From a virus: a stretch of DNA of 62,883 nt. Location: IMG/VR virus record IMGVR_UViG_3300007640_000006, positions 1 through 62,883 of that record; one strand, 5' to 3'. The notes under the pieces are model-generated. The model did no database searches, had not been told where the DNA came from, and worked only from the letters and a program-made list of their open reading frames with translations. The translations under genes were made by a program, and so were the position numbers. This document shows positions 124 to 27,468 of the stretch, in pieces; position 1 is the first letter of the stretch; the number at the start of each line of letters is the position of its first letter.

Positions 124-437
124 GCGTAGAAGCCGCCGCCGACCTCGACCACACCAGCATGAACACCTTCGTGGTCCAGGCGATCGAGGAAAAGCTGGCT
201 CGCGCCAAGCGCCAGGAACTTCTACTGGATGCCCTGGAGTTGGTTGCTTTCGGTAATGACGGTGGCCAGGTGCAAATGGCTCCCCGCCTGATCGGCTGGC
301 GTACCGCCGACTATCTGGAAGAGACGAACGACCACAAAGTCGCCAGCAACTGGGCGTCTGCTGTCGCAGTCCTGCCGATCTTCGAAGGCGACACCATCAC
401 CAAGCTGCCGCATGTCCCTGTGGAGACTTCGGCATGA
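63..437 (+). CDS. Arc-like ribbon-helix-helix DNA-binding protein
   Basis: N-terminus ADKFVVRMPDGVRSRVEAAADLDHTSMNTFVVQAIEEKL fits the Arc/MetJ strand-helix-helix pattern. The ATG overlaps the upstream stop (ATGGGTAA). Confidence 0.6.
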   Translation: MGNSRTADKFVVRMPDGVRSRVEAAADLDHTSMNTFVVQAIEEKLARAKRQELLLDALELVAFGNDGGQVQMAPRLIGWRTADYLEETNDHKVASNWASAVAVLPIFEGDTITKLPHVPVETSA

Positions 438-9949: not shown

Positions 9950-11185
9950 GTGAAGCGCACTGCGATCAAGCGCCGGCCACTGGCTGATACCGTTCTGGCC
10001 ACCCTGGAACCGGAAGCGAAAGAATATCGTGAGCTCGACGGCGCCGGCCTTTACTTCCGTGTGAAGCCGGACGGCGGCAAGTCCTGGCAATTGCGCTACA
10101 AGAACGCCGCTGGCAAGTGGTCATGGATTGGCCTTGGCTCATACCCTGAAGTGGGCGGCGCCCTGGCGCGCAAGAAGGCCGGCGAGCACCAGGCGAACAT
10201 CAGCAACGGCGTCGACCCTCTCGAGCACAAGCGCGCCGAGAAGGCCCGCATGGATGCGGCTGCCACACGCACCTTCAGGGCTGCAGCAGAAGACTGGTAC
10301 ATGCACATGCAGGCCAAGGGGCTGGAGCAGAGCACGCTGGACAAGGTGCGCGCCTATCTCGATAAGGACATTCTGCCGGCGCTGGGCGCCAAGCAGCTCG
10401 ACGATATCACCCGCGCGGACTGCGCTGGCGTGCAGGCTATGTTCGAGGCACGCAACGCGCACAACGTAGCCAAGAAGGCGCGAGGCTGGATAAACCAGAT
10501 ATTCGGCCGAGCGATCGCCAAGGGCCTGACCGAGAACGACCCGGCCAGCCGCCTGGCAGCGATCGCCGCACCGCCACCCACCACCAAGCAGCAGCCGCAC
10601 CTGCTCGAGCATGAACTGCCCGACTTCCTGCACGCCCTGCAGGCCAGCACCAGCCGGCTACCGGCGCGCACCGCTGCATGGCTCTGCCTGTGGCTGGCTG
10701 TGCGCCCTGGCATGCTGCGCTTTGCCGAGTGGCCCGAGTTCGACCTTGAAGCCGGCACGTGGTCAGTGTCAGCGGACAAGATGAAGATGGACCGGGACTA
10801 TATGACCCCTCTCCCGCGCCAGGCTATTGCCGCCCTGCAGGATCTGCACAGGGTCACCGGCCACAACCGCTGGCTGTTCCCCGGAGTTGGCCCTAAGAAC
10901 CCGACCATCAGCGAGAACACCATCTGCCAGGTCTATGCAAAGATCGGCTACAAAGGCCGCCTTGTTGGCCACGGCACACGCCACACCGCCAGCACCCTGC
11001 TGAACGAACACGACTGGCCAAAGAAGCATATCGACGCCCAACTCGCGCACAAGGTCGAAGGCGTCGCAGGCGTCTATAACAAGGCTCAGTACCTTGAGCA
11101 GCGCCGGGTGATGATGCAGTGGTATGTCGACTATCTGGATGCTCTGGCAGCCGGTACTGCCAAGCAACTCAGTCGGAGGCCCTGA
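9950..11185 (+). CDS. int: Tyrosine integrase, P4-type (DUF4102-like N-terminal arm-binding domain)
   Basis: GTG start. N-terminus LYFRVKPDGGKSWQLRYKNAAGKWSWIGLGSYP. Catalytic region AVRPGMLRFAEW, HGTRHTASTLL, AHKVEGVAGVYNKAQY (R, H-x-x-R, H, Y). Confidence 0.92.
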   Translation: MKRTAIKRRPLADTVLATLEPEAKEYRELDGAGLYFRVKPDGGKSWQLRYKNAAGKWSWIGLGSYPEVGGALARKKAGEHQANISNGVDPLEHKRAEKARMDAAATRTFRAAAEDWYMHMQAKGLEQSTLDKVRAYLDKDILPALGAKQLDDITRADCAGVQAMFEARNAHNVAKKARGWINQIFGRAIAKGLTENDPASRLAAIAAPPPTTKQQPHLLEHELPDFLHALQASTSRLPARTAAWLCLWLAVRPGMLRFAEWPEFDLEAGTWSVSADKMKMDRDYMTPLPRQAIAALQDLHRVTGHNRWLFPGVGPKNPTISENTICQVYAKIGYKGRLVGHGTRHTASTLLNEHDWPKKHIDAQLAHKVEGVAGVYNKAQYLEQRRVMMQWYVDYLDALAAGTAKQLSRRP

Positions 11186-11761: not shown

Positions 11762-14700
11762 TCAGAAGTCCCCGCCCGCCAGCTTCACGATCCTTTCCGC
11801 AATCTGATTCGACTGACGCTGCAGCGCATCCAGGCGCTGCCGCTTCTGCTCTGGCGTCATGCGGGTGTCGCGATATACCGCATCCATCTGGTTGCGCACG
11901 TTGCCCAGTTGCTTGCGAGCGAAGCCCAGCGCCGGCCGGTGGCGCAACTTCTCGCGGTTCGCCGCCATCAGTTGCTCGGCCGCGTCGACGCGCCCCTCCT
12001 CCCGATAGGACTTGATCGTGCGATTGAGCTGGTCGGCCTCGCGCATCATGTCGTAGAACTCAGACTGGTACTTGGTGCTGCGCGGCGAATCGCCCTGGTA
12101 CAAGACTTTCAGGATCGGGATATCGCCGCTGCGGCTGGCCGGGCGCTCGGCATCGCTGAAGGTGTTGGCCACCAGGCTCGACATATCCAGCACGTACTGG
12201 CCTAGGGTGCCGGTGTAGGCGGCGATCAGGTGGTCGACCTGCTTGGGCGACAGCCCTGCGATCGGCCCGGTAACCTGGCCCAGCACGCGGCCAATGGCGC
12301 TAGTGCGCTCGTCATACCGTGCCTCCGGCAGTTTCCCCTCGTCGCTCATATCCTCGATCGGCGAGTCGCGGAAAAAGTTGCGGTTGGCCTGCAGTTCCCG
12401 GATTGGCTGGTAGAACTGCGGTACCGGGTTGAATGCCAAGGTCTGGAACACGCCTTGCGATACCGCCTTGGCCAGGTCGCCGCCATCCTGGGTACCAGTG
12501 AGCGCGTGCAGGATTCGCTCTGGCACGGTACCGAAGATCAAGCCCAGTTCGAACGGCTTGGGAATGCGGAAATGCTCGTCGCCTAGGAAGATATGCCAGT
12601 GCATGTCTTTATCCCAGTCCATCAGTGCCTGGTAACGCTCGTCATCGTCGTTCAGGCCAGCCAGCATCAGCGAGAACAGCGCGATATAGCCGCCCTTCAT
12701 GGCCACTTCCTTGGCCAGTAGGGTCTTGTCGCCCTTCACCGCACGACCGAGCTTGTACAAGCCCTGCAGGCGCGCGTTCAGGAACGGCACCACATCGGTA
12801 AACCACTGCGCCGCGGCGAAGTTGCCGCGCAGGCTGTAGTCCATCAGATCCTTGGCTTCGTAGGATGCCTGCCGGCGAGACTTGCCGGCCTCGATCGCGG
12901 CCTTGTAGGTGCTCAGACGGTTGGCGTTCTCGACCTTGTCGCCCAGTTCCCGATACTTCTGCCAGCCCTTGCCGATCATGGCCGCGGCTTTTGCTGGGGT
13001 GTTCACCAGGCTGCCCAAGTAGGCCTCCTGCTGCGTGCGGGTGAAGCCCTTCTTCTCCAGCGCGCGGCGGATGATCTGCGCCGAGGCCTCTGGATCTGCC
13101 CCGTGCACATAGCCACCCTGGAAGCTGCCGCCGGCAAACATCAGGTCGCGGTAATCCTGATCCTCGCGCAGAGCGTCGCGCATGCCCTTGAGCGAGTCCT
13201 TGCCCAGCGTGAAGCCGTCTTTGTTGATTACCCAGGCATGCGCGGCGTCACGGATGAAGTTGCGCAGGATGAAGTCAGGCGATGCCGTTACGCCGGTGGT
13301 GAGAATCCGCTTGAAGGTCCGCCCGATCTTGGTGATCGGGTCATTGAACACGCTGCCTTCCATGAACTTCAGGCCGCGCAGCAGGCTCTCGTCGTTCACG
13401 CGGTAGTACTCGCTCTTGCCGTCGCGCTGCACCCGCACGATATCGGGGTCAGTCGGCGCAACGCGGGTCCACAGCTTCTCGAAGCCCTCGCTTTCAGGCT
13501 TCATCAGTTGGTTCACCACCTTGATGACGTTGGAGCCGGCCGGCAGGTCCAGCAGATCAGCGGCCAGCGCCAGGGCCTTGCGATCCTTGCGGATCTGCTG
13601 GGCGATCTGATCACGGCTGATCAGCACCTGCTGCCAGCGCGGGCTCTCGTCGGTCAGGAAGTCGCTGCCCTGCAGGTTATCCACCACCTCGAGCAACGCC
13701 TTGTTCTTCATCGAGGCGTCGATGCGCTTGGTCCATCCGGCCAGCATGTTGGACAGCAGGTCGTTGGTTGGCAGGTTGCCACCCTTCAGCGCCTTGATGG
13801 CAGCGGTCTGGTGCGACAGGCCGCGCTTCGACCGCGGTGCAGTGAAGATGCCTTCGCTTTCGTCCTGGCGGTAGAACGGCACGTAGTAGTCCGTCAGCCA
13901 CTTCGCCCTGGCGTCCTGATCGATCAGGCCGGCTTCTTGCGCCAGGTCGAGAACAGCCTCGTTCACCTGTGCATATTCGCGATACACCTTCTCGAAGAGC
14001 TCTTCCTTGCCCTGCCCCATTGCCACCAGCTCGGCAATCTCGGTATCGGTCAGGTTGTTCTCACGCCCCTGAGCCTTCAGCAACTGAGCGCGCTTGCCGC
14101 CGAGCCAAGCGAGCCATGGCGTCAGGTTGTCCGCGCCGAGGTCACCCAGGATATCAAGCACGCCGCGGGTACCGGCCTTGCCAGACACGATACCGTCGCG
14201 CCATTCCGGCGCCGCGTAGTGCAGCACGCCATGCATCACGTCGGCGATACCACTGGCCAGGCGGGCCGACACATACCCCTGCTGGTTTGCATCGGTGACG
14301 CCTACCGCCTCTTCAGCGCGACGGATGCCGGCCAGGCCGTCGAAAATCCCCTCTTCCGATCGCACGGACCATTCCTTGAGCTTCGCCTGCAGGCCGCCCA
14401 AGGTGACGTTGCGCACCTGATCCAGCAGGTTCTGCGCCTCGCTGCCCGCCAGCCCCAGCTTGCGCAGCGCTTCGGTGTCGCGCTGGCTGGCACGGGAATA
14501 GCGAATATCAGGATCGATCTCGTCGAATGCCCCGGTGTTGTTCGTGGCCGACTTCACCTGGTTGTTGTAGAACGCCACCCAGGTACCGGTATTCGCAAGC
14601 TGGATGCCGTCATAACCCTCGGCTTCAAGCCGCTGCCGCATAGCGATCGCCTTCTCGAAGGAATCCAGGCTCTGCGATTCCGCCACGCTCATGCGGTACG

Positions 14701-17700
14701 GGTTCTTGATCGATGCGAACAGCGGCATAACGTTGGTCAGCCCTGGCATGCCGTCGGTTGCTTTCTCTGCGTAGGCTTTCGCCAGGGTGCCGTCATTGGT
14801 GAGGAACACACCAAGCGGTGCCGTGGTGTGGCCGGTGCTGCGGCCCGGCCGGCTCTGGTCAAAGATGGTGAACTGTTCGGCGGTGCCGTGGTACAGCACC
14901 AGTGGCTCGCCGTTGCCGTCCGTCACCTTAGAGACGGTATCGGGATTGACGCGATTCAGCGCCCGGCGTACAAAGTCCCCTGGAGCCTTGGTATTGGCCG
15001 GTGTCGACCTCTGACCTTCACGGGTCATCTCGCGCGGAGAGACTGCCAAGGCTTCTTCTTTTCTATCGAGCGTCACAAGATTGTGCAGTCGGCGCCCGTT
15101 ATTGTCCTCGCGGACATTGAACACCACATACAGCGGCACCCCGTCGACAGATACGGGCATGATCAGCTTGTGGTGCGCCATCCCTTCCCGACCTTTGCTA
15201 TCGAAGTCCCAGCGCGAATACTCCGCATGGCGAATTGCGTCCTGCACCTTGGCCAGGACCGTATGTTTCGCCGGGTCTGCTGAAGTCGACACTGCTTTCT
15301 TGGCGCCGTTGTTGTTCAACCTGACCTCGCCAAGCACGTCATGCTGCAGGGTTTCACCAGACGCAACAAACCCGCGCAGCAACTCCAGCACCTTGGCCTG
15401 ACGCTCCTTGATACCCAGCCCCTTCCAGGCTTCTGGTGTTTTCAGGCGAAGCGGCTTCGATTCGTCCAGCCGCTGCTCAACCGCCAGTGCCTGCCAGTCA
15501 CCGAACCACCGGTCGAAAGATTCGCTGCGCACTTGGTGCCACTGCTTCTGATTGAGCTTCGACGGCTTGCCGTTCGGTGCCAGCAAGCGCCCCTGCTCGT
15601 CGGCGATTTCTGGACCACGACCGGAGCGCCCATCGCGCGAGAACGCCTCCCGAGCACCAGCCCGGCGCCTGCCGTTCTCGATATAGGCCCGAGCATTGGC
15701 CAACAGACCCTGAATATCGCCCTCGGTCCAACGCATGTTGAAGCCGATAGATCGCAGCGCGTTGCGCATCGCGGTCACCAAGCGCGGCCAGAACGCTTGC
15801 TGCTGGATGGTACCGGCGCCAGCCATATCGGCCAGCACTTCCTCCATGGCCACGGCCGGCTCATACCCATGCCGACGCACGAACTGATCGGCCTGGGCTT
15901 TTAGCTCTGGATTGCCGTTGTAGATACTCATCAGTAGAGGCTTTAGCCGAGCGCCGTACGCTCCCTGCATACCAGCATGACCAAGCACTTCATGCTGTAA
16001 CACGAACGCCGCGTGCTTCACGTCACGCAGGTTGTCGGCCACTAGATAAACCGTGCCGTCGCTCAGGGTGCCCTCGATATCAAAGGCGCCATCACGCTCG
16101 ACAGTACGACGCTGGCGATCCGGCAGATCCTTGATCGACTGCACCACCTTCACATCTGGCGCATTCTGCCAGGCCCCGGTCAGGCGCTTGAGTTGCATGC
16201 GCAGTTGGCCAGCGCGGGCGCCCTGGCCCTGCTCTGGAGAGCGTCGGTAGCTGTTGCGCGAGTACATGACCACCGCACCGTCATCATCAACGCGGGTTTG
16301 CACGGTCGAAAACAGCTTGTCGAAAGCATCGCTTACCGGCCCCTGCTCGTCCGGGGTCAGATACGGGTACCGATCAGCAGAACGGACGAACTGCTCCAGG
16401 GTCCGGACGTTCGCCAAGTAGTCGTTGCGATAGCCCTGGTCTGCCAGCCTGGCAATGACGTAGGTTTCAAATGCCCGGGCGCCGCGCTCGATGATCTGCG
16501 ACCAGTATGCATCCGGCGACTTGTCCAGATTGGCAGACCGGCGCGCCATGGGCGACTGATCCAGCACGTCGACCAGTTCAGCGAAAGCACGCTCTACCTC
16601 TGGCCGCACACCCGTAGGATGACGTGGATCGACCTGCCAGTTATCCGGGTTGAAGTACTCGGCATCTGGGTTCTGCTCGCGGTAGCGCTGCAGTTTGGCC
16701 AGGGACATAGGCGAACTACGTTGCGTCTTGTGGACGTACAGCGGTTCCGGCCGGTAAGTGATGAAGTTGTTATTGCGGTACGCCTGCTGGGCATTGGCGC
16801 CCCGCTCCATCGGCACCTCACCGCCACGCTGGCGAGCAAAGTAGTTATCAAGCGCATGGAACCATTCATGCGCAAGCGATCCTGCCCCGCGCGTCTTGGT
16901 CATGTTGATGACTATATTGCTCGGCTCGAAATGAGCGCTGGCACGGCCACGCCCACGCGAACCGAAGCCGATGCCGAGGCGCCCGCCGAGGCTCAAGGCT
17001 TTGGGCGGCACGCCGACCACATCGGCCAGATCCATGAACGAATCGTAGGCTTGGTTCAGCAGGCCCTGCCGATCAGCACCACCGGCACCTTGCGCAACCC
17101 AGTTGCCGAACTCGACGCCACGGAAGCCGAACACTTCAAGGAACTGCTCAGGCGTGATATCGGCGCCGTTCCGGTAATTGCGCCCGGTACGCTCGTCGTT
17201 GGTATCGCGGCGCATGTCGGCCTTGGTGACGTTGTCGCGGTTCTTTACGGCATCCCAGGCCGTGACCAGCTCACCGTGCTGGTCCGATAGAAAAGCGCGC
17301 GCTGCCTTCACATCGCTGAAGGTCTTTAGACGCCGCAGTTCTTTGTCCCCATCCTTTGAAATGAACACCTCGCCAGAACTGCGATCGGTGTAGATGGAGA
17401 ACTTCATGCGCGACTCTGGAGCCGAACCCAGATTGATCGCAGAGCGGATATCGGAGAGAGCATCGGCGACGCTATTCTTTCCGAAGAAGTGTTTCCTGCT
17501 GCCGTCGATCTCTACCTCGACCCACGAACCGGGCACCATTGTCCCGCCATCGTTGTACTTGCCGCTGGCAACACTTACCCGGCCTATACGCCCCCACTGA
17601 CCGCGATCAATACCCATCAGAAGTTCGATCTTGTCGGCGATCGGTCGCAAGCCAGGGCTGAACTCGCGCATTTTCGGAACAGTCGCATCAGCACCGATGT

Positions 17701-20700
17701 CAGCCAGCGTCTTCAGGATCTCGCGCGCGGCCTTCACCTTGTCGACCCAGACGCGCACCTTGTAAGGTACGCGCGGCTTGGCAGGGATCATCTCGCGCAC
17801 GACCTGATACGACGCAGCGTGAAACAGATCCTCGATGCGATTGATCTCGTCCTTCGGCCAAAGCTGGCTCAGGGTGCTGTTGGCGATAGCGGCATCATCC
17901 ATGCTGTCCAGACGCTCGCGCACCCCGCGCAGCTCGTCCTTCCTGGCGCCGCCCAGCTTCTCGCCGGCATCCTCTACGATTTTTGGCTGACGGCTTGCCG
18001 TCGCGGTAGGCTCTGGGCGCGCCCGCTCTTCACTGACAACACCGTACTCTTCCCGCAGCGCTTCCCAGGCCTGGCGGTTCACGCCTTCCGGGCTGTCGCT
18101 GTTCAGGTCGTTGTACTGCTCGAAGGTGATGCCGGCCGAGGCGCGATCAACGTCCGCCTCGTACTGGTCCTGCAGGCGCTGGATGGCCTGGTCGTAACCT
18201 GGCGATCCTTTCTTGATGCCGGCGGCCTTGGCCTGGCGGTCGATATAGCGCTTGCGCGGGGTCGCCAGGATCTCGGGCAGAGCCGGCGCCAGATCGGTCG
18301 CTTGAGCGGGTACCGCCTGTTCACTGGCCGCTGGTTGATCAGCAGCAGGCTGCTCGCTCAGTGCACGCTGTCCGTCTGCCCCTTGAGTTGCAGCAGGAAC
18401 ACCAGATCGATCAGTTCCTGCCGATCGCCCGGCAGCGGCAGGCCGTTCAGCCACAACTGGCTCTCGCGCCACGTTATCTGCCGCATCTGGCACAGCAGGC
18501 GTATCGCCTGCGGCTCGGTCATCAACAGGCCCTGGCCGACTATCAGCACCTTGCACCTCCTGAGACGCCTGATCAGTGAACGAACTGGGGAACTCACGCG
18601 CCAGCGGCAGCAGATCGGCCATCGGCGCATTGAGACGGATAACCTTCACATCGCCGCCGGTCTCGCGTTGCGCCAGCCATTGGTGGTGGCCATCGAGAAC
18701 ATAGCCGTCGCCAGATACCAGAATGGAGCGCTCGGTACCTTCCCGAGCAGCAGCGCGCCCTACCCGTTCCGGACTGAACTCGGCTTGCGTCGGGCGCAGG
18801 CTGCGAGCCGGCACGGTCTGTTCCTCATGCGTAACGCCGCGGGCGTTCATGAAATTGACCATGGCCCCGCGATGGTCAGCGCGAATCTGCGGCATGTCCG
18901 CGCGCGGCACGCCAAGGCTGCCGGACTGTTGGTTGAATCCGACCCAGCCACTACCGAGGTCGTCACCCTGCAGGTCACGCGCGAAAGTCACGCCGCTGTC
19001 ACGGCCATTGTCACGTGACACGTCCGTGACAGGTCGCCGCGCTGCCGGCGCCTGCCGCTCCATGCCAGGCCCGCCGATGGGGCGAACCTGGGCGCGCGGC
19101 TCAACGAATGGCGCAGTCGCACCACGCTGCGCATTACCCTGGCTGTCCACCACCATGGTGCCTGGCGCGGGCAAGCCAAGCGGCGCAGGCGGCGGTACCG
19201 GCTCACGCGGCACAGCAACCGCCCATCCACCCTCATGCGGGACGATGATCGGGCTTTCGCCCTCGCGCTGCAGTTGGTTGAACAATCCCAGCAGGCGCAC
19301 GTCTCGCTCGCCACGGAATGGGCGCCCGTTCTTCTGCACGCGAATATCGAAGTTCGGATCGCCAGCCACTGGAGTGGGCTGCACCTGCTCGACAGGCATA
19401 GGCCCGGTATCCGACTCAACCGTCGGCAGCGGTAGCGGCTGCTCGACCTGCTCGACCGACTGCGGGCCGGTGTCCGATTCCACAGTTGCCAGCGGCGGCT
19501 GCTCCGGCAGTTCGTCTACCTGCGGCACCAGTTCATCCAGGCCGCGAGGATCTTGCGGGTCGAAACCCTGCTCGGCCCAGGTATCCAACTGCCGCTTGGC
19601 GGCATCCAGCGCCTGGGCCTCTGGCACTTCCACCATCGTCTGCAGATCACGGTCGTAGCGGTAGAAGCGCAGATTGCCGTTCTCGTCCAGATCAGCCGGG
19701 AACAGCTCCTGAGCGATCGCCAGTTGCTGGCTGATCGGCTCGTATCGACCTCCCGGCTGCGTATCGGGCGCACCGCTGAGCATGGATTGACGCACAGCAT
19801 CCTGCACCGGGGTCTGGCTTCCAGTCGGCGCGCCGTCGACGGCAGTTACGGCAGCGGCAGACAGCGGGCCAGCAGCAGGGTCCAGCCCCATCTGCTCAGA
19901 CGGTCGGCGTGCAACGTTGACCGCACCGCCGATCGCAGATCCTGCCAGCGTGCCTTCCACTGCAGCACGCGGCACGCCCTCCATCAATGGCTTCTGCTCG
20001 GCCCAGTTCTGCAGCATCTGCTCTTGAACGGACTGCGGCAGCTCTTCCAGCACGCCCTCGGTCAGCGCGCCGCCAGCAACGCGACGAGCCAGCCCGGGCG
20101 ATTTGCCTGCCACCTGGCCGACACCGCCAGCCAGCGCGCTCTCCACGTCGATCAGGCCAGCACGCTGTGCAAGGCGCGCACCAAAGCCACTCAGGGCAGC
20201 ACCAGCCACACCAGCACCAGCAGACGCCAGGGCGGCGCGCCGCGGGTCGACCTCGCGATCAATCTGATCCATGGTGCCGCCGGCGATCACAGCACCCTCA
20301 CCACCAGCACCGGCCGCGATAGCCTGCCGCGCGGCCTGGCCAGCGGTCGCCGGGCTGGCGATCAGCCCAGCAGCGCGCCCACCTACCAGCGCACCACGGC
20401 CGATAGCGCCACCCGCCAGCATCTGCGGCAGCGACTCAGCCACCAGGCCTGCAACATTGCCAGGATTGCTCGCGTAGGCACCCGCGATATCCAGCGCATC
20501 GCCCTCTTCCCAGGCCTGCTCAATCTCAGCAGTACCTTGCTGGCGTTGTGGGCTGTATTCCTGCTGAGCCTCTTCCTGCCACTTGCTGGGCTGGAAGCCA
20601 GTCGCCTCACCGATCTTGTCAGCCGTCTCGTCGACAACACGGCGGCCAGTGAGCGCGCCGACACCCACATCAGCCAGACCAGTGACCACACCGGGCAACT

Positions 20701-20875
20701 GCTGCACGCCGCGTTTTAGGTCGGTACCCAGGTCGCCGAGAAGAGAAGCGTTCTGTTTCCTACCAGTTTCAGAGCGGAGGTCAAACTCATCCAGCAGATT
20801 TGACTTGTTGGTTGTTACTTCCTGCCCCTGCGATCCACCGTCGCGCAGACCAAATTCGTCAAGAAGATTTGCCAT
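11762..20875 (-). CDS. Giant polyvalent virion/ejection protein (3,037 aa): ParB-like nuclease, two HExxH metallopeptidase-like motifs and an ART-like domain
   Basis: ATG 20875 with a GGAGAG RBS (the track start 20887 is TTG). ParB-like SLRPTQAEF...YVLDGHHQW at about 18590-18900. HEWFH at 16856-16870. HEVLGH at 15977-15994. LVLYHGTAEQF...FLTNDGTLAKAYA...ASIKNPY at about 14520-14910. Confidence 0.85.
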   Translation of the reverse strand: MANLLDEFGLRDGGSQGQEVTTNKSNLLDEFDLRSETGRKQNASLLGDLGTDLKRGVQQLPGVVTGLADVGVGALTGRRVVDETADKIGEATGFQPSKWQEEAQQEYSPQRQQGTAEIEQAWEEGDALDIAGAYASNPGNVAGLVAESLPQMLAGGAIGRGALVGGRAAGLIASPATAGQAARQAIAAGAGGEGAVIAGGTMDQIDREVDPRRAALASAGAGVAGAALSGFGARLAQRAGLIDVESALAGGVGQVAGKSPGLARRVAGGALTEGVLEELPQSVQEQMLQNWAEQKPLMEGVPRAAVEGTLAGSAIGGAVNVARRPSEQMGLDPAAGPLSAAAVTAVDGAPTGSQTPVQDAVRQSMLSGAPDTQPGGRYEPISQQLAIAQELFPADLDENGNLRFYRYDRDLQTMVEVPEAQALDAAKRQLDTWAEQGFDPQDPRGLDELVPQVDELPEQPPLATVESDTGPQSVEQVEQPLPLPTVESDTGPMPVEQVQPTPVAGDPNFDIRVQKNGRPFRGERDVRLLGLFNQLQREGESPIIVPHEGGWAVAVPREPVPPPAPLGLPAPGTMVVDSQGNAQRGATAPFVEPRAQVRPIGGPGMERQAPAARRPVTDVSRDNGRDSGVTFARDLQGDDLGSGWVGFNQQSGSLGVPRADMPQIRADHRGAMVNFMNARGVTHEEQTVPARSLRPTQAEFSPERVGRAAAREGTERSILVSGDGYVLDGHHQWLAQRETGGDVKVIRLNAPMADLLPLAREFPSSFTDQASQEVQGADSRPGPVDDRAAGDTPAVPDAADNVAREPVVAERPAAAGRSAGTDRSGVPAATQGADGQRALSEQPAADQPAASEQAVPAQATDLAPALPEILATPRKRYIDRQAKAAGIKKGSPGYDQAIQRLQDQYEADVDRASAGITFEQYNDLNSDSPEGVNRQAWEALREEYGVVSEERARPEPTATASRQPKIVEDAGEKLGGARKDELRGVRERLDSMDDAAIANSTLSQLWPKDEINRIEDLFHAASYQVVREMIPAKPRVPYKVRVWVDKVKAAREILKTLADIGADATVPKMREFSPGLRPIADKIELLMGIDRGQWGRIGRVSVASGKYNDGGTMVPGSWVEVEIDGSRKHFFGKNSVADALSDIRSAINLGSAPESRMKFSIYTDRSSGEVFISKDGDKELRRLKTFSDVKAARAFLSDQHGELVTAWDAVKNRDNVTKADMRRDTNDERTGRNYRNGADITPEQFLEVFGFRGVEFGNWVAQGAGGADRQGLLNQAYDSFMDLADVVGVPPKALSLGGRLGIGFGSRGRGRASAHFEPSNIVINMTKTRGAGSLAHEWFHALDNYFARQRGGEVPMERGANAQQAYRNNNFITYRPEPLYVHKTQRSSPMSLAKLQRYREQNPDAEYFNPDNWQVDPRHPTGVRPEVERAFAELVDVLDQSPMARRSANLDKSPDAYWSQIIERGARAFETYVIARLADQGYRNDYLANVRTLEQFVRSADRYPYLTPDEQGPVSDAFDKLFSTVQTRVDDDGAVVMYSRNSYRRSPEQGQGARAGQLRMQLKRLTGAWQNAPDVKVVQSIKDLPDRQRRTVERDGAFDIEGTLSDGTVYLVADNLRDVKHAAFVLQHEVLGHAGMQGAYGARLKPLLMSIYNGNPELKAQADQFVRRHGYEPAVAMEEVLADMAGAGTIQQQAFWPRLVTAMRNALRSIGFNMRWTEGDIQGLLANARAYIENGRRRAGAREAFSRDGRSGRGPEIADEQGRLLAPNGKPSKLNQKQWHQVRSESFDRWFGDWQALAVEQRLDESKPLRLKTPEAWKGLGIKERQAKVLELLRGFVASGETLQHDVLGEVRLNNNGAKKAVSTSADPAKHTVLAKVQDAIRHAEYSRWDFDSKGREGMAHHKLIMPVSVDGVPLYVVFNVREDNNGRRLHNLVTLDRKEEALAVSPREMTREGQRSTPANTKAPGDFVRRALNRVNPDTVSKVTDGNGEPLVLYHGTAEQFTIFDQSRPGRSTGHTTAPLGVFLTNDGTLAKAYAEKATDGMPGLTNVMPLFASIKNPYRMSVAESQSLDSFEKAIAMRQRLEAEGYDGIQLANTGTWVAFYNNQVKSATNNTGAFDEIDPDIRYSRASQRDTEALRKLGLAGSEAQNLLDQVRNVTLGGLQAKLKEWSVRSEEGIFDGLAGIRRAEEAVGVTDANQQGYVSARLASGIADVMHGVLHYAAPEWRDGIVSGKAGTRGVLDILGDLGADNLTPWLAWLGGKRAQLLKAQGRENNLTDTEIAELVAMGQGKEELFEKVYREYAQVNEAVLDLAQEAGLIDQDARAKWLTDYYVPFYRQDESEGIFTAPRSKRGLSHQTAAIKALKGGNLPTNDLLSNMLAGWTKRIDASMKNKALLEVVDNLQGSDFLTDESPRWQQVLISRDQIAQQIRKDRKALALAADLLDLPAGSNVIKVVNQLMKPESEGFEKLWTRVAPTDPDIVRVQRDGKSEYYRVNDESLLRGLKFMEGSVFNDPITKIGRTFKRILTTGVTASPDFILRNFIRDAAHAWVINKDGFTLGKDSLKGMRDALREDQDYRDLMFAGGSFQGGYVHGADPEASAQIIRRALEKKGFTRTQQEAYLGSLVNTPAKAAAMIGKGWQKYRELGDKVENANRLSTYKAAIEAGKSRRQASYEAKDLMDYSLRGNFAAAQWFTDVVPFLNARLQGLYKLGRAVKGDKTLLAKEVAMKGGYIALFSLMLAGLNDDDERYQALMDWDKDMHWHIFLGDEHFRIPKPFELGLIFGTVPERILHALTGTQDGGDLAKAVSQGVFQTLAFNPVPQFYQPIRELQANRNFFRDSPIEDMSDEGKLPEARYDERTSAIGRVLGQVTGPIAGLSPKQVDHLIAAYTGTLGQYVLDMSSLVANTFSDAERPASRSGDIPILKVLYQGDSPRSTKYQSEFYDMMREADQLNRTIKSYREEGRVDAAEQLMAANREKLRHRPALGFARKQLGNVRNQMDAVYRDTRMTPEQKRQRLDALQRQSNQIAERIVKLAGGDF

Positions 20876-20885
20876 TCCGCTCTCC

Positions 20886-20910
20886 AAAAGAAAACCCGCC
20901 GTAGCGGGTT
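20886..20910 (-). terminator. Terminator-like hairpin immediately upstream of the giant gene RBS
   Basis: Minus sense: AACCCGC-tacg-GCGGGTT followed by TTCTTTTGGAGAGCGGAATG. Confidence 0.55.
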
Positions 20911-20973: not shown

Positions 20974-21471
20974 TCACTGCTGTCCGATCGTTGTGGAAGT
21001 CCTACCATTGCGAATGGTTGTAGATCTACTGCCATCACTTCCGAAGCAGTTCGTATAGTCACCATTGCTAAGACAATTGGTGACTACCCTCTTTCTACTT
21101 GGCTCGGGTTCCTGAATCCCATTTTCGGCGTTGATCCGCTTTCTCTCCAGGCGCTCCCTTATAATTTCGTCAGTGGTCAGCTGCCTGCTACTGTCTTTCA
21201 CAACGGTAACCTTTGTTCCAGCACCACCTCCAGATTGCGCGCTATTGCCGCGCATGATTTCCGCTGCTCGTAGATTTCTCTCAACCACCGACGAACTACT
21301 TTCTGGCTCTACTGTTCGCTGCACCTCTCCCAGGTACTGGGACTCACCACCGCCAGGTGGGCATGGCACCTGAGAAAAAGCGATCGCACCATCAGGTCCG
21401 ACACATTTGAATATCTGAGCGTTCGCCACCGATGCAAACATAACCGCCAAGATAAAAATGTAGATTTTCAC
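20974..21471 (-). CDS. Secreted DUF4124-like protein (165 aa)
   Basis: GTG 21471 with a GGAGG RBS 8 nt upstream. Signal peptide KIYIFILAVMFASVANA, then QIFKCVGPDGAIAFSQVPCP (DUF4124-like). Visibly AT-richer than its neighbours. Confidence 0.65.
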   Translation of the reverse strand: MKIYIFILAVMFASVANAQIFKCVGPDGAIAFSQVPCPPGGGESQYLGEVQRTVEPESSSSVVERNLRAAEIMRGNSAQSGGGAGTKVTVVKDSSRQLTTDEIIRERLERKRINAENGIQEPEPSRKRVVTNCLSNGDYTNCFGSDGSRSTTIRNGRTSTTIGQQ

Positions 21472-21554
21472 GATGCCACCTCCATGCAGTAGCGCAACGC
21501 TACCACCAGCGTGGTCGCCAGTCATCTGAACAGCAAACTACTCGACACACGGCG

Positions 21555-23525
21555 CTATTGACCAACCGATATCCCTTTACCACGCAGAAGCTCAATCACC
21601 CGCTCTGGACTGATACCCTCGTCTCTGGCGGTCTGCTCAACTTCTGCTCGCGATACCTCACGCCTGGCACCCTGAGTTTGCTGCGAAGCATTAACCGGCT
21701 GACCGGTAGTCACGTCGATAACCTGCTTGCCAACGATCGGTCGTCCCATTTCGTCACGATCAAGAATGACGTCCTGCGTGATATAGCGGTCCTTCGCCTG
21801 GGTCGCCAAGACGTTGTAAGCCTGGCGGGCGACATTACGCTGCTCTTCGCTGATGTTCGTGTCAGAGATCTGCGCGCGCAGTTGCTCGAGGCGCTGGCGA
21901 TCCTGCATGCCCAGGTCACCCTCGGCAATCTGCTGCTGCAGGCGCTGCTGGTTGAGCTGTTCGGTGCCCATTCGCTGGGTCGTGGCGGCACGCTCCACGG
22001 CCGAGTTGGCGGCGCCCTGCTGGGTCTGCTGCCGCTGCCCTTCCGTCTGAGCCTGTCGCGCATCGAGGCGAGCATTCTGCAGGTCGGCCAGGGTTGGCGA
22101 GCGGGAACTGTCGCGCACTACGGTAACCCGACCGCCACCTTCGCCGATTTCGCCACGTCGACTGGCCTGGATCATCTGCGCACGCTCTTGGTTGGCGCGC
22201 TCGAAGCGATCGATGGCCATCTGTGCGTCACCGGGAGCACCTACGGAAAGGCCACCACCAACGCCATCGCCAACACGGTTCATACCGCCAGCAGGCATCG
22301 TCCTGGCACCAGCTGCTGCCGCGTTGTCGTTCGTGAACTCAGGGGTGCCATCGGCACCGGTACGCATGGCGATGCCGTTGCCTGCCTGGGTGTAGCCGTT
22401 TCCGGCTGGCGATACAAACTCTGGTGCATCAGCGCTTGGCGCCGATGCTTCAGGCATCATGGCAGCAGACTCTCGCGCCATAGCCTGGATACGCTCAGGC
22501 GTCATCCCGGTGGTTGCAGTTGGTGCTGGCGAAGCGGCAGGCGCTGCGCCTGCGCCGTCACGCGGCTGCACGCCGAGGGCTTCACGACCAGCAGCACGCA
22601 GACCTTCGGTGGCGCCGCTGATACGATCCAAACCTTGCTGCACGCCGCCGACCGCCTCGTCGCGATATCGCGCTGCACCACCAGGTAGCGTCGACGGGTC
22701 GCCACCAACCGCATATGCAGCTACATTGCGCAGCGCATCCCGGCCAGCAGCGATCGGAACCTGAGCTGCGCCGGCCACGGCCTGACCGATGCCGGCCGGA
22801 ACATCCAGCAGGCCCCGAACTCCCGGCATACCGAGACGCGGCGCGTCCTGTTCAGTAGTCGTCGTGGTGGTGCTTCGCGGCATGCCCAGCCCCGGCTGCT
22901 GAGTGGCAGCAGACTGCTGGCCAGGGCGCGGCATCCCGAAGCCGCCGGCGCGCGGCTCAGCCTGCGCCGGAGTCGCCTGAGCGTTGTTACCCGGTACGCC
23001 GAGGCGTGGCGCATTCTGCTGCGCAAGCGTCGTGGCACCAGGTCTCGGCAGGCCAAGGCCTGGGGTATTGGTGATATCGAACGAGGTCTGGCGCGGATTG
23101 CGCTCATCGTCAACCAACCCACCATCCACGAAGAACTGGCGCGGGCCGTCGGCTTGCTGCCCTTTCGCAGCAGCCATCACCGCCTTGGTGAGCCCGAAGC
23201 CCTTCTGCTGGTGAGTGGCGTTCTTCAGTTGGTCGAGCACCACAGCGCCAAGCGCATGCACGTCCTGGGGCGGCATTTCGTACTCGCCATTACTGACGGC
23301 CACCGGCACCTGCTTGCCAGGCATACCGAGCCGCGGCTGTTCCCTATCCGGCGCACTCTGGCTATTACGCCCAGGCATTCCCAGCCCGAGCTGAGCCGTG
23401 GTGTCGGCCGGCAGGATGTAAGTTCCTTCCGGAACGTCTTTCTTGATCGAATCGGACGTGCCAGTGCCAGGCCCTTCGATCAATCCGCCATTGGCGGCAT
23501 GCTTGCGCTTGGGAAGCCCGTACAT
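21555..23525 (-). CDS. Virion internal/ejection-type protein (656 aa) with seven (P)RLGMPG-like repeats
   Basis: GGGAG RBS. N-terminal GPGTGTSDSIKKDVPEGTYILPADTT. Repeats are LGLGMPG, PRLGMPG, GLGLPRPG, PRLGVPG, GFGMPRPG, PGLGMPR and PRLGMPG. Q-rich coiled coil near the C-terminus. Confidence 0.7.
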   Translation of the reverse strand: MYGLPKRKHAANGGLIEGPGTGTSDSIKKDVPEGTYILPADTTAQLGLGMPGRNSQSAPDREQPRLGMPGKQVPVAVSNGEYEMPPQDVHALGAVVLDQLKNATHQQKGFGLTKAVMAAAKGQQADGPRQFFVDGGLVDDERNPRQTSFDITNTPGLGLPRPGATTLAQQNAPRLGVPGNNAQATPAQAEPRAGGFGMPRPGQQSAATQQPGLGMPRSTTTTTTEQDAPRLGMPGVRGLLDVPAGIGQAVAGAAQVPIAAGRDALRNVAAYAVGGDPSTLPGGAARYRDEAVGGVQQGLDRISGATEGLRAAGREALGVQPRDGAGAAPAASPAPTATTGMTPERIQAMARESAAMMPEASAPSADAPEFVSPAGNGYTQAGNGIAMRTGADGTPEFTNDNAAAAGARTMPAGGMNRVGDGVGGGLSVGAPGDAQMAIDRFERANQERAQMIQASRRGEIGEGGGRVTVVRDSSRSPTLADLQNARLDARQAQTEGQRQQTQQGAANSAVERAATTQRMGTEQLNQQRLQQQIAEGDLGMQDRQRLEQLRAQISDTNISEEQRNVARQAYNVLATQAKDRYITQDVILDRDEMGRPIVGKQVIDVTTGQPVNASQQTQGARREVSRAEVEQTARDEGISPERVIELLRGKGISVGQ

Positions 23526-23579: not shown

Positions 23580-23597
23580 AACCCTATAGGGGGTCAG
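23580..23597 (-). promoter_or_regulatory. Late-operon conserved motif, copy 6 (CTGACCCCCTATAGGGTT)
   Basis: Overlaps the TGA of the upstream gene, 54 nt upstream of the 656-aa gene ATG. Confidence 0.6.
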
Positions 23598-24130
23598 ATG
23601 ATTTCCATCGCCGACCTGAATGCTGTCCAAAAACCAGCCGGCGGCGGCACAACACCACCCGCGCCAGCAACAAGAAGCGCGCCCATCACCAGATCAGCGC
23701 CAGGCAGTTGCGCAGCAATGAAAGACGCTGAATCCGGCCCTTGCTCAATCGCAGCAGAGGGAGCCCAGTGCACACCCTGCACTAGTGGGGAGGGGATGAA
23801 ATCTGGCTCGTAATCAGCCGTGAAAGTAACCATCAACGGCAGTTCGCCCGACGCGACGTAGACGGTACCGCTCGACTGATCAGCCCCTGTCTCTGTCACG
23901 CCCTCGACAACAACCAACCCGTCGAAGCTAGCCGAGGCAATAACCCCTGGATACAGACGCGCCAACGCTGGAAACGCATCGCAGCGCGAAGGGTCAAACA
24001 CTGACCATCCCCCAGAAGTCTGGCTTTCCCAGTTCCACCAGCTGGCGTAGTCACGGTTAACCGTCTCAGAACTGGCCGATATCTCAGACAGGTTTATCGG
24101 AGAGAAGACCTGAACATACCCAGTTGCCAT
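23594..24130 (-). CDS. Hypothetical tail-module protein (178 aa)
   Basis: ATG 24130 overlaps the upstream TAA by 1 nt. No motif. Confidence 0.6.
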   Translation of the reverse strand: MATGYVQVFSPINLSEISASSETVNRDYASWWNWESQTSGGWSVFDPSRCDAFPALARLYPGVIASASFDGLVVVEGVTETGADQSSGTVYVASGELPLMVTFTADYEPDFIPSPLVQGVHWAPSAAIEQGPDSASFIAAQLPGADLVMGALLVAGAGGVVPPPAGFWTAFRSAMEII

Positions 24131-24642
24131 TATGTGAAATCCTCTGCGCGAACCAGCCTGCATTCCCCGTTGGCGTAGTACACCAATCCGTTTGGCATGT
24201 TCTTAAACGAGAGGTCTTGCGGCTGCATGGCCTCATCAAACTGAAGCGCCCGGTACTGGCGCACCACCCCTTCAGCCGACACAAGAAAATACGTCCGCAC
24301 AACGACGCCAGTGCTCGACTCTTCACCGTAGAAGACCATGTTGTCGCCCGTGCTACCCAAATTGCCAAAGTCGTAGTACTCCGAAAGCATGGCCATGGTG
24401 AACCGGTGAATCTCCACCGCGGCAGCCGGCGGCGTGTCCTTGTCCGCGCTCGGCACGCATCGCATGACCCTCAGATCATTACCATCCCAACTGCTGACCA
24501 GCACCACATCGCCCACCAAAACACCAACGGTGTCGGACTCTGCAGCTACGCGGCGCAGCACTTCAGCGCCGCCAGGTGTGTAGGTGTACAAGTAGCAGTA
24601 CCCAGTGTTGAAGTCTTTTGCCGCCCGATAGAAAACAGCCAC
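24130..24642 (-). CDS. Hypothetical tail-module protein (170 aa)
   Basis: Track ORF, 9 nt after the upstream stop. Confidence 0.6.
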   Translation of the reverse strand: MAVFYRAAKDFNTGYCYLYTYTPGGAEVLRRVAAESDTVGVLVGDVVLVSSWDGNDLRVMRCVPSADKDTPPAAAVEIHRFTMAMLSEYYDFGNLGSTGDNMVFYGEESSTGVVVRTYFLVSAEGVVRQYRALQFDEAMQPQDLSFKNMPNGLVYYANGECRLVRAEDFT

Positions 24643-24651
24643 CGCGACCTC

Positions 24652-26529
24652 CTATTCCCTAACTTTCAAAGCTGTGCCGCAGTAATAAGCGCCTGCCGGC
24701 GATCCGAAATCGGCCAACATGGACCAGGTCGCGCCAGAGTCAGCACTGATGAATGTTTGCCCACCCTCGACACCAGGCTCTCCAGCAGACCGGCCAAGGC
24801 CGCCGAAGGTGATGATCACCGTCGCATGGCGAACGATTACACCGTCATCCACACGCTCGAGCACCGGGCAATCGATCGCTCCAACGAAAAGATTCGTGCG
24901 CAACTGCCGCTCCGCAACAACAATGCCTGCGACCGAAACTACATTCAGGCTGCTGTCGTAGACCATGACAACCAGATCGCCAAGACTGTTGAACACGCCT
25001 GGGCTTATCTCGATCTGGTCAGTAGCAGGAAACAGGTACTTGCCGTTCCCTATGTAGCGGACGCAGGAGAAACGGCTTTCCACGATGTTCCGGCAGTACC
25101 TTTGCGGTACCAGCTCACTGAGCACCACCACCGCGCCAGCAGACGTCAGCGCGACGATATCGATGCTGGTTTCGGTGGTACGTGCGCCTGCGCTGTAGTC
25201 CACGTCGCTGGAGAAAAAGACGGCGTAGGCTGTTTCACCGTCCGTATCGATTCCTATCGGAAACGAGAAGTCATGAGACTGCCCGTCAGTCGGATCAATC
25301 ATCGCCGCCACAGGTCCGGAGATCAGATCCTTCGTCAGCCCGCCTTCGCTCCAGCGATATGCATACACGGCATTGAACGGGGCGAAACCTTCATCTACTG
25401 CGGCATAGTTGAGGTGCAGGACAACAGCGATCACCATCCCTGAATCAAGCCGAGCCAGCATCGCTGGGTACAGGGTGTTTGACGAATACACATCATCAAC
25501 AGGATCCAGCACCGGAACCATAAGCGGCTCTGAGCCGAGCCGAGTGTCATCCAGGGAGAACCACGGCAGATCAAGGTACGGCCCGGCCGACACTGGTTGA
25601 ATCCCCCTTACCACCCCGAACCATAGCCCCTTCGCGCCGTACCTATCATCATCGTTTCGCATCTCTGCAACGGCATGGATCACCAGCAGCGTATCGAAAT
25701 AGGCCTGCCCTTCATCATCGACGCCCGTGCTCAGCTGTATCGCGCGCGCCCACGGCTGCTGCGCAGCACTGAATACCGTTGCAGCAGAACTACCAGGGTC
25801 GTATGCCGGCGGCGCAATACGCTTGCAGAACGGCAACGCTCCGGCTGTATCCCATAGCGCGCTATCAGAAACAGCGATCGACCAAGTATCCGATGGCACC
25901 TCATGGTCAGATACTTCCCAGCCATCACCACCCACGCTGTATCGAGCACGCGCGATAGCCGGCGAGTAGAGATTCAGCAGGTAGACAATGTTGCTATCTC
26001 CACGCCCCACGAATGCATATGGGTTCACCACGTAGGGACCAGGCATATAGAGCGGCACGGTCAGTTCCACGACGCCGATTCCCTGCCGCACCGAAAGCGA
26101 CGGTTGAATGCGACTCTCGATAACGCTCACGGCTGGCGCCAACGTGCCGCCGAGCACCACGGGTAATGGCGGGCATCCGGCATGGTCAGGAAACAGGCTC
26201 GCCGGCCCGCGGTTCCATGCGCGCGCTATATCGTCCCTACCGCCAGGCAGATCGATCAGTGGGCAATGCGCAGGCTCGTATCCAGATCCAGGCCCGCCGA
26301 CCAGAGCCCTGCCCGGCACAGCCACAGTTCCAGGGGTGTCGATCAAGTAGACTGTCGCTCTGTTGCCGACCCGCGACGCCTTCATGATGTAGCCGTCGAC
26401 GATCCTCGATCGCGTGATGTTCATAGCCCCTGGCAATGACCTGGCAAAACGCACAGCCCCATCCTGTAGCCACGCGGCCGAGGCCGCAAGCAGCTTCACC
26501 GTGACGCCAAGCCGGAAATTCACTGTCAC
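24652..26529 (-). CDS. Hypothetical tail-module protein (625 aa) with one BNR/Asp-box-like motif
   Basis: The GTG start overlaps the upstream TGA. C-terminal SADSGATW fits the SxDxGxTW Asp-box. Confidence 0.65.
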   Translation of the reverse strand: MTVNFRLGVTVKLLAASAAWLQDGAVRFARSLPGAMNITRSRIVDGYIMKASRVGNRATVYLIDTPGTVAVPGRALVGGPGSGYEPAHCPLIDLPGGRDDIARAWNRGPASLFPDHAGCPPLPVVLGGTLAPAVSVIESRIQPSLSVRQGIGVVELTVPLYMPGPYVVNPYAFVGRGDSNIVYLLNLYSPAIARARYSVGGDGWEVSDHEVPSDTWSIAVSDSALWDTAGALPFCKRIAPPAYDPGSSAATVFSAAQQPWARAIQLSTGVDDEGQAYFDTLLVIHAVAEMRNDDDRYGAKGLWFGVVRGIQPVSAGPYLDLPWFSLDDTRLGSEPLMVPVLDPVDDVYSSNTLYPAMLARLDSGMVIAVVLHLNYAAVDEGFAPFNAVYAYRWSEGGLTKDLISGPVAAMIDPTDGQSHDFSFPIGIDTDGETAYAVFFSSDVDYSAGARTTETSIDIVALTSAGAVVVLSELVPQRYCRNIVESRFSCVRYIGNGKYLFPATDQIEISPGVFNSLGDLVVMVYDSSLNVVSVAGIVVAERQLRTNLFVGAIDCPVLERVDDGVIVRHATVIITFGGLGRSAGEPGVEGGQTFISADSGATWSMLADFGSPAGAYYCGTALKVRE

Positions 26530-27467: not shown

Positions 27468-27468
27468 G

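Follow-up and report, generated by a model that had tools for sequence, protein, structure and literature searches.

An uninterrupted gene for a cysteine-free polyvalent protein of 3,037 residues, probably an ejected virion protein, in a phage genome related to F116

The virus record IMGVR_UViG_3300007640_000006 (62,883 nucleotides (nt) of DNA, called the window below) contains an uninterrupted minus-strand gene of 9,114 nt, that is 14.5% of the window. An earlier note, made from the sequence alone, had described the product as a polyvalent protein, encoded at the far end of the late operon and combining a domain like an ADP-ribosyltransferase (ART), two HExxH motifs and a ParB/sulfiredoxin-type segment. 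This central reading is borne out by matches to Pfam families, by a match to the NCBIfam family CLCA_X and by the conserved core of a HExxxH domain, with the ParB-like module recognized as probable at the level of fold only. Most probably (we estimate a probability of about 0.75) the gene encodes a phage-type polyvalent protein, i.e. one chain made late in infection, packed inside the head of a temperate phage of Pseudomonas with a short tail, and leaving it by way of this tail together with the DNA. It is a new combination of domains in a class described in 2017 and not a new kind of system.

The open reading frame (ORF) begins with the ATG at position 20875, preceded by GGAGAG 8 nt upstream, and runs without internal stop codon to the stop at 11762-11764. 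An in-frame TTG at 20887, four codons 5' of the ATG, is a less likely alternative start. Five Pfam domains (LPD5, LPD1, LPD3, ART-PolyVal and LPD38) are found above their gathering cut-offs with E-values from 1.6e-11 to 7.7e-44, and 13 PHROG families are matched by the giant protein, hence the ORF is far beyond what chance would produce. Profile searches were one of the checks named in the earlier note, which would have been contradicted if none of its folds had appeared; instead they returned these five families. All the peptides quoted there lie at or inside the positions it gave for them. The gene and its parts, in the order of the protein chain, are as follows.

11762..20875, minus strand: polyvalent protein gene, complete coding sequence, 3,037 residues, stop codon included; five Pfam domains and 13 PHROG families
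20762..20869, minus strand: twin acidic-aromatic peptides (A/S)NLLDEF, residues 3-14 and 26-38, placed from the motif positions
19841..20758, minus strand: Gly/Ala-rich N-terminal domain, residues 40-345, candidate membrane or ejectosome anchor; phrog_30335 and phrog_2206
18974..19840, minus strand: Pro/acidic linker, residues 346-634, delimited by composition, with TVESDTGP..VEQV twins inside
18485..18973, minus strand: ParB/sulfiredoxin-like domain, residues 635-797, from an AlphaFold model and its PDB matches; motifs LRPTQAEF and DGHHQW
17135..17476, minus strand: LPD5 domain, residues 1134-1247; Pfam PF18799, E 3.8e-23
16817..17191, minus strand: putative zincin metallopeptidase 1, residues 1229-1353; NCBIfam CLCA_X, E 6.8e-32, motif HEWFH
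16295..16516, minus strand: LPD1 domain, residues 1454-1527; Pfam PF18796, E 1.6e-12
15629..16207, minus strand: HExxxH domain, putative metallopeptidase 2, residues 1557-1749; conserved domain of about 190 residues, motif HEVLGH
15086..15412, minus strand: LPD3 domain, residues 1822-1930; Pfam PF18798, E 1.6e-11
14525..14920, minus strand: ART-PolyVal ADP-ribosyltransferase domain, residues 1986-2117; Pfam PF18760, E 7.6e-23
11765..14506, minus strand: C-terminal LPD38-type module, residues about 2124-3037, with the Pfam LPD38 core at residues 2745-2922 (12110-12643)

The chain thus carries ART-PolyVal, two HEx(x)xH domains, a ParB/sulfiredoxin-like domain and LPD1, LPD3, LPD5 and LPD38 together, and it is encoded among late and virion genes, as are its counterparts in Stx and F116-like phages; these are two of the features by which the polyvalent class is recognized. 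The exact order of its domains was not found in the annotated phage collection, and the nearest full-length architecture is that of an unannotated metagenomic protein (P0099). A sequence search of the PDB with the whole protein and a megablast of the gene against GenBank phages returned nothing; the search for homologues of the protein was done in three segments.

The giant gene is the last one of a minus-strand block that contains the genes of the small and large terminase subunits, portal, major capsid protein, head closure and tail. The ORF is intact and closes the late block, in agreement with the earlier description of an uninterrupted frame of about 15% of the genome, placed last in the late operon. 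Portals of F116-like Pseudomonas phages share 68.7% identity with the portal encoded here, and the head genes group with those of F116, Stx and GP4-type phages; the Stx phage phi24B is a podovirus (bioRxiv 10.64898/2026.04.10.717836). Just downstream of the giant gene and convergent to it lies an integrase gene (9950-11185, plus strand, 411 residues). The segment 9764-11242, which spans the integrase and by which this gene was identified, is 81% identical in DNA to a Pseudomonas prophage adjoining queA-tgt-yajC-secDF. The sequence thus suggests a temperate phage and gives a clue to where its attachment region lies. Two elements upstream of the giant gene are needed for the discussion below.

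21555..23525, minus strand: 656-residue protein, candidate ejection partner; cysteine-free, phrog_11341
20893..20910, minus strand: terminator-like hairpin AACCCGC-TACG-GCGGGTT followed by TTCTTTT, 18 nt 5' of the start codon of the giant gene

Packaging and ejection is the best-supported reading of the locus owing to three lines of evidence: suppression of cysteine, virion data for a homologue, and this position in the late operon. The giant protein has no cysteine in 3,037 residues, while about 28 would be expected from the content of the 23 other ORFs of the window (0.94%; P about 3.5e-13), and the 656-residue protein has none either. Zero cysteines are likewise found in gp35 of Stx2-86, in ARM81 p69 and in gp50, gp51 and gp52 of phage N4. 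The 150 related giant proteins that were collected (P0096-P0245) contain together 68 cysteines in 404,854 residues (0.017%), and 115 of the 150 are completely free of them. Such suppression is a conserved feature of the ejection operon of Schitoviridae, where it was explained by the passage of the proteins through the oxidising periplasm (PMC11445570); judged from the composition of these chains, it extends to polyvalent proteins outside of Schitoviridae. Further, gp47 of phi24B (2,811 residues, with LPD5, LPD1, LPD38 and MuF-C) has the same domain set as Stx2-86 gp35, and it is abundant in the virion by proteomics and absent from the cryo-EM shell, for which reason its authors propose it to be an encapsidated ejection protein (bioRxiv 10.64898/2026.04.10.717836). 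The idea of the earlier note that the giant protein takes part in ejection together with the 656-residue protein has thereby gained support of an indirect kind: both are cysteine-free, and the homologue from a Stx phage is present in virions.

The catalytic domains are located in the middle of the chain. The segment compared by the earlier note with ARTs turned out to be a full-length match to ART-PolyVal (positions 1-140 of 140) at 82.3 bits against a gathering cut-off of 31.2, and the peptides LYHGT, FLTNDG, AKAYA and IKNPY fall within residues 1994-2060. The active site of this family is formed by His of strand 1, Tyr of strand 2 and Asp of strand 5 (PMC5512222). All three are present as H1996, Y2035 and D2089: in the alignment of 24 relatives H1996 is conserved at 90% or more, and Y2035 and D2089 are the consensus residues.

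The first peptidase-type motif, HEWFH (residues 1336-1340, positions 16856-16870), lies exactly where it had been reported and is the sole true HExxH of the giant protein. It belongs to a segment matching CLCA_X; the match is partial (positions 3-123 of 250) and below the curated cut-off. Residues H1315, H1336, E1337, H1340 and D1343 are conserved at 90% or more among the relatives. This pattern is the one described for the commonest phage-type peptidase, with an extra His before HExxH and an Asp three residues after it (Iyer et al., PMC5512222, section 8). LPD1 is a regular partner of metallopeptidase 1, as related proteins have it alongside the CLCA_X-like segment. The second motif had also been read as HExxH, and its position was right (residues 1628-1633, 15977-15994), but it is actually H-E-x-x-x-H (HEVLGH). 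The domain around it is present in 3,279 protein clusters (exhaustive HMMER search, E<=1e-3), and the best 150 of these are nearly all proteins of 2,000-5,000 residues. In 148 sequences H1628, E1629 and H1633 are conserved at 99-100%, and E1678/E1679 as well as G1635 at 97-100%; the two His and three Glu are also invariant in an alignment of 18 sequences. By these residues the domain matches the clade of metallopeptidases with HEXXXH that was described in 2017 by Iyer et al. (PMC5512222), to which it would be assigned.

The ParB/sulfiredoxin-type segment of the earlier note probably holds, at the level of fold only, and lies outside the Pfam family ddrB-ParB. Its motifs SLRPTQAEF and YVLDGHHQW are residues 692-700 (18776-18802) and 725-733 (18677-18703), respectively. 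The AlphaFold model of the domain (predicted local distance difference test, pLDDT, 85.6) was compared with the PDB, and the top ten matches are all ParB or sulfiredoxin structures, though with weak scores; they include pNOB8 ParB-N, B. subtilis ParB, human sulfiredoxin and Atu1540 (entries 5k5d, 6sdk, 1xw4 and 2hwj), the best being 5k5d with probability 1.00 and E 6.4e-3, and the template modelling (TM) scores are 0.3-0.47. Residues R716, D723, D728, G729, H730, H731 and Q732 are conserved in the relatives. Residues 620-830 have no Pfam match even at E<=10, ddrB-ParB (PF18763) included, to which ARM81 p69 is matched at 2.1e-36; two homologues of the segment match ParBc_2 (PF08857) weakly (E 0.064). 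The only match of the ParB-like profile among PDB sequences was a coiled coil, which was judged spurious. Taken from the model, residues 635-797 likely adopt a ParB/sulfiredoxin fold.

The C-terminal region of about 1,000 residues, for which the earlier note offered no assignment, can be assigned as a conserved LPD38-type module of about 850-900 residues. The Pfam LPD38 family (PF18857) is matched over its full length (1-189 of 189; E 7.7e-44, 150.5 bits against a gathering cut-off of 27). There are 74 homologues of the module, down to 33% identity, the closest being from Pseudomonas (92%), and tblastn finds it in 384 phage records, among them Stx-converting, Vibrio, Ralstonia and Burkholderia phages and the Aeromonas phage phiARM81mr. 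Its AlphaFold model (pLDDT 81.7, predicted TM score 0.78) has no Foldseek match in the PDB at E<=1e-3, and the best matches there (transporters and HEAT-like proteins) have TM below 0.11 and are noise. In BFVD, a collection of predicted viral structures, 66 matches are found at E<=1e-3 with TM up to 0.84, and the named entries among the 50 matches listed are mostly LPD-type polyvalent proteins. The module is always located 11 residues or fewer from the C-terminus of related proteins.

This module is one of several alternative tails. When 142 related giant proteins were clustered by their C-terminal 600 residues, 56 fell into the PLxRFG type, 47 into LPD38 and 20 into a third type, the remainder forming a few small groups. 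LPD38 and PLxRFG tails, found by phmmer with single sequences, never occur in one protein and always end a few residues from the C-terminus. The third, unnamed type comprises P0096, P0102, P0115, P0116, P0121, P0122, P0130, P0148 and 12 others of the 142; the tail of P0096 has no Pfam match in this region. Residues 2190-3037 of the giant protein have no match at E<=1 to NCBIfam NF032893 ('tail-700 / PLxRFG'), to which F116 p60 and 8P_023 are matched at 1e-230 to 1e-240. Nevertheless, LPD38 and PLxRFG modules have in common two collinear motifs, Y-x-P-[LF]-x-R and, 303-316 residues further, E-x-x-N-R-x-x-[VT]-[YF]-x-A-A, both made of residues nearly invariant in the two families. Comparison of the profiles by hhalign gave a probability of 1-1.5% (local P 0.03-0.05) and nothing in global mode. 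Since this is not significant, homology is not claimed and the motifs are only a lead, by which the two modules may be ancient homologues.

The stand-alone LPD38 proteins of 770-850 residues found in databases were considered as a proof that the module is independent, and were dropped: the closest of them (P0003) is the downstream half of a split gene. In the related prophage L007 (5389-12322; also in L008) the polyvalent gene is split into ORFs of 1,539 and 773 residues, apparently by a one-base deletion at the codons for ...GGKRAQLLKAQG..., as concluded from the junction sequence. Database entries of this kind can therefore be frameshift halves. The L007 copy is devoid of the ParB-like and LPD5-peptidase-LPD1 modules and has its own twin N-terminal peptide, PWDDYG / PWREYG; the counterpart of the integrase gene is found there at 12778-14013.

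Exchange is not limited to the tail. P0096 is 94% identical to the giant protein over residues 40-960, then skips LPD5-peptidase-LPD1 and ends with the third type of tail, and P0099 is 76% identical over residues 1457-3037 and 37% in the N-terminal domain. The breakpoints among these closest metagenomic relatives fall between modules. As relatives at the same genome position have other cargo and another C-terminal module, the giant gene is a mosaic of exchangeable modules, which is what the description of the class leads one to expect.

The N-terminus had been described as a low-complexity region with tandem peptides. It is more than that, as residues 40-345 match two PHROG families: phrog_30335 over residues 43-320 and phrog_2206, named 'virion RNA polymerase', over residues 97-335 (profile positions 181-429, E 5e-11). 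The pairwise alignment of this Gly/Ala-rich domain with residues 185-277 of N4 gp50 is weak (E 0.11), so the connection to gp50 is made through the profile. The aligned stretch overlaps helices 224-278 of the N4 N-terminal domain, which are predicted to span the membrane; this domain was reported to insert into nanodiscs and proposed to bind the periplasmic tunnel protein (PMC13434306). The following Pro/acidic linker has no family match.

The tandem peptides themselves are real at the protein level, though too short and diverged to register as tandem repeats of the DNA. One pair is the NLLDEF twin in front of the Gly/Ala-rich domain, and the other, TVESDTGP..VEQV, is located in the linker (residues 464-477, 19445-19486, and 485-498, 19382-19423). 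Duplicated N-terminal 7-mers with at least 5 of 7 identical positions are present in 55 of 143 related giant proteins, compared with 16 of 143 in an internal control region. GLFDDLR, NFFDQYD and DQKPWES, each occurring twice, are examples from the class, with NLLDEF twice here. The twin 7-mer is a class-wide feature, and one guess is that it serves as a capsid-targeting or docking signal. Of 23 hand-picked, top-scoring twin pairs, every one has an aromatic residue, and two or more Asp or Glu are present in 21. The sequences of the twins vary even among close relatives (N-termini of P0096-P0245 and 8P_023; here residues 1-40, 20756-20875).

The following course of events would be consistent with these features. 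The chain would pass out of the head in a mostly unfolded state, like a string of beads, as its cysteine-free composition and long Pro/Ala-rich linkers suggest. The Gly/Ala-rich domain may then engage the inner membrane and contribute, with the 656-residue protein, to a channel across the envelope. In the cell the cargo would act: the ParB/sulfiredoxin-like domain, the zincin-type peptidases with HExxH and HExxxH, and the H-Y-D ART, to judge from their families. Separate effectors would most likely be released when one or both peptidases cleave the Pro/Ala-rich linkers. For the ART, NAD+-dependent modification of host macromolecules is the most likely activity, and nucleic acid or nucleotides may be what the ParB-like domain acts on. 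By analogy with the family, the cargo would counter host defences. Constant throughout the family is the LPD38-type module, whose most likely role is in incorporation into the capsid, in the last step of ejection, or in both, as suggested by its fixed terminal position and by its exchangeability with other tail modules.

Several points weigh against this picture. Packaging and ejection of this particular protein are deduced from relatives, composition and gene position, and phi24B gp47 is taken as the equivalent of Stx2-86 gp35 from size and domain set, not from sequence. The relation to N4 gp50 stays at the level of profiles, the pairwise comparison being not significant, and no classical transmembrane segment is predicted in the giant protein (maximum Kyte-Doolittle value 1.34). 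No structure of known function resembles the C-terminal module, hence its role is a guess from position. Both peptidases are putative: the third zinc ligand of metallopeptidase 1, assigned as a zincin by its sequence, was not located, and the HExxxH domain gave only chance-level matches against Pfam and PDB sequences, whether as a single sequence, as 18 members or as a profile. The matches of the ParB-like model to ParB and sulfiredoxin structures have low TM scores, and their E-values are 6e-3 or worse. Finally, the hairpin directly 5' of the gene could mean that it is weakly expressed.

In the main rival explanation the protein serves chiefly as a structural component of ejection, a counterpart of T7 gp16 or of the N4 gp50 scaffold, which builds or extends the trans-envelope channel; its peptidases would breach the cell wall or the links to outer-membrane lipoproteins instead of processing the chain or attacking defences, and the other 'enzymes' would be secondary. 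The authors of the phi24B study propose this for gp47, seen there as a conduit whose metallopeptidase acts on peptidoglycan. The N- and C-terminal modules are conserved while the cargo varies, and the window encodes no tape-measure or other large internal protein; the earlier note had recognized no tape-measure gene either, and the giant protein itself has no match to a tape-measure family in Pfam or PHROG. On the other hand, Pfam and NCBIfam scans detect no lysozyme, transglycosylase or known cell-wall peptidase family in the chain, and even distant relatives retain the catalytic residues in the ART as well as in both HEx(x)xH domains, which argues for selected enzymatic roles. An NAD+-dependent ART and a ParB-like domain are directed to the cytoplasm and would make little sense in a purely periplasmic conduit. 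This explanation accounts less well for the conserved enzymes of cytoplasmic type, and we regard it as unlikely.

It is still less probable that the protein is not packaged at all and works as a late cytoplasmic factor of host takeover or of competition between phages (against superinfecting phages, or on the host at lysis), or as a toxin-like effector expressed from the prophage. The hairpin between the giant gene and the upstream late genes, which may reduce read-through into the giant gene, would fit such a role, as would the neighbouring integrase at the end of the prophage, where accessory 'moron' genes are commonly located. The extreme suppression of cysteine shared with proven ejected proteins, the presence of a homologue in virions and the annotation of the positional orthologues in F116-like phages as structural proteins speak against it. 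That the protein is a DarB-like methylase-helicase antirestriction protein or resembles a virion RNA polymerase is very improbable: homologous regions are annotated 'DNA methylase', 'DarB-like antirestriction' or 'internal virion polymerase', and phrog_15406 and phrog_2206 are so named, but the named matches cover only residues 2199-2974 (the C-terminal module) and 97-335 (the N-terminal domain), no methyltransferase, helicase or RNA polymerase family is matched in the giant protein in Pfam or NCBIfam, and 8P_023 and ARM81 p69 have such domains elsewhere in the chain, so that the names were carried over from other modules of the mosaic.

With packaging and ejection of a polyvalent chain as the preferred reading, the mutual exclusivity of the tail types, the collinear motifs of LPD38 and PLxRFG and the twin N-terminal 7-mers together suggest a common chassis with swappable cargo. 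Tentatively, and with more doubt than belief, giant ejected proteins may share a delivery chassis formed by a twin N-terminal peptide (candidate signal for docking to the capsid or the channel), a Gly/Ala-rich membrane-active domain and one of about three mutually exclusive C-terminal modules of about 700-900 residues. If so, any cargo placed between both ends would be packaged and injected, which would explain the rampant swapping of cargo among close relatives and would open a route to engineered protein delivery by phages. The module swaps between close relatives mark natural boundaries for such engineering.

The genes around the giant gene show some further features. The N-terminal part of the 656-residue protein (about 320 residues) is 34-37% identical to the product of the gene located just 5' of the giant genes in phages 8P and F116. 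No significant match was found between the 656-residue protein and N4 gp51 or PDB chains, nor in comparisons of the N-terminus of the giant protein and the 656-, 189- and 183-residue proteins with N4 gp50, gp51 and gp52. A synteny of three genes by size with N4 (150/644/3,500 against 189/656/3,037 residues) was considered and abandoned, as the 189-residue ORF includes a cysteine and tblastn gives no counterpart for it in either 8P or F116. This ORF and an overlapping one of 170 residues occupy about 1 kilobase (23594-24642, minus strand) between the genes of a 625-residue and the 656-residue protein; the second has no tblastn match in the 8P or F116 loci either, and the 189-residue ORF, the only one of the two that was scanned, has no PHROG match.

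Between the 656-residue gene and the giant gene there is an ORF of 183 residues (20974-21525, minus strand) with 4 cysteines and a signal-peptide-like start (…IFILAVMFASVANA followed by QIFKCVGPDG). The terminator-like hairpin described above follows this ORF. A tblastn search of the 8P and F116 loci gave no counterpart, and in 8P the genes on both sides directly adjoin each other. The ORF therefore has the look of an accessory ('moron') gene that was inserted together with a terminator of its own. Three other late proteins of the window are free of cysteine, namely those of 321 (26526-27491), 227 (33771-34454) and 351 residues (41086-42141), and the first of these, whose lack of cysteine has a chance probability of about 0.05, could be ejected as well. 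A protein of 627 residues encoded among the genes for head and neck (31885-33768, minus strand) matches lipase/esterase PHROGs (phrog_6102, E 2.5e-52); the capsid of phi24B is decorated by a processed esterase, and the 627-residue protein might be an analogous virion-borne esterase. On the early strand, a protein of 878 residues (434-3070, plus strand; 10 cysteines) matches helicase (phrog_16, E 1e-126) and DNA methyltransferase PHROGs. Helicase/methylase-type function is thus a separate gene here, while in 8P the methylase and SNF2 helicase sit within the giant virion protein.

As a genome annotation, the gene is an expected member of a described class, for a homologue of which virion data appeared in 2026. 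Polyvalent proteins are presumably the first proteins of a phage that the host encounters, and hardly any of them has been studied experimentally. Here an intact ART, two peptidase-type domains and a ParB-like domain are found on one cysteine-free chain, in a lineage of temperate Pseudomonas phages related to the transducing phage F116. This makes a tractable case for asking whether such a chain is processed after injection, which defences or host machines it hits, and which of its ends holds the information for packaging and ejection.

Comparison with known systems places the protein as follows. The polyvalent proteins of Iyer, Burroughs, Anand, de Souza and Aravind (2017, PMC5512222) similarly have many unrelated domains per chain, with zincin hubs including the HEXXXH variant, H-Y-D ART, ParB-superfamily and LPD domains and late-gene context; in the giant protein the zincin and ParB-superfamily assignments are putative. 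The gp35 of Stx2-86 (2,783 residues) is also encoded by the last late gene, just before the integrase, and has LPD5, putative zincin, LPD1, HExxxH domain and C-terminal LPD38 in common with the giant protein (32% identity over residues 967-1712 and 23% over 2275-3029); it differs in having MuF-C, in the absence of ParB-like, LPD3 and ART domains, and in its N-terminus, which is unrelated by BLAST. In F116-like phages (F116 is classified in Hollowayvirus, phage 8P is unclassified) the same genome position, after a homologous protein of about 650 residues, is taken by 8P_023 (5,145 residues, 'structural protein') or by F116 p59 and p60. These share with the giant protein the N-terminal domain (33-34% identity to F116 p59 and 8P_023), the ParB-like domain (57-60% to the same two) and ART-PolyVal (35% to F116 p60), but have methylase, SNF2 helicase and LPD23 as cargo and the NF032893 'tail-700 / PLxRFG' C-terminus instead of LPD38. 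N4 gp50, which together with gp51 and gp52 represents the ejection operon of Schitoviridae, is likewise a giant cysteine-free chain encoded after a cysteine-free protein of about 650 residues, its virion RNA polymerase N-terminal profile is matched by the Gly/Ala-rich region, and the beads-on-a-string model of ejection would apply to both. In contrast to the giant protein it contains an RNA polymerase domain, pairwise comparisons with gp50, gp51 and gp52 are not significant, and the C-terminal domains are unrelated by these searches. The Dar proteins of P1 (DarB and DdrB, the latter combining ParB and zincin) and Alt of T4, a packaged ART, are enzymes packed in the head and delivered with the DNA. 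They are functional precedents for the class, although they are separate, smaller proteins of myoviruses, and Alt is an R-S-E ART in place of the H-Y-D type found here.

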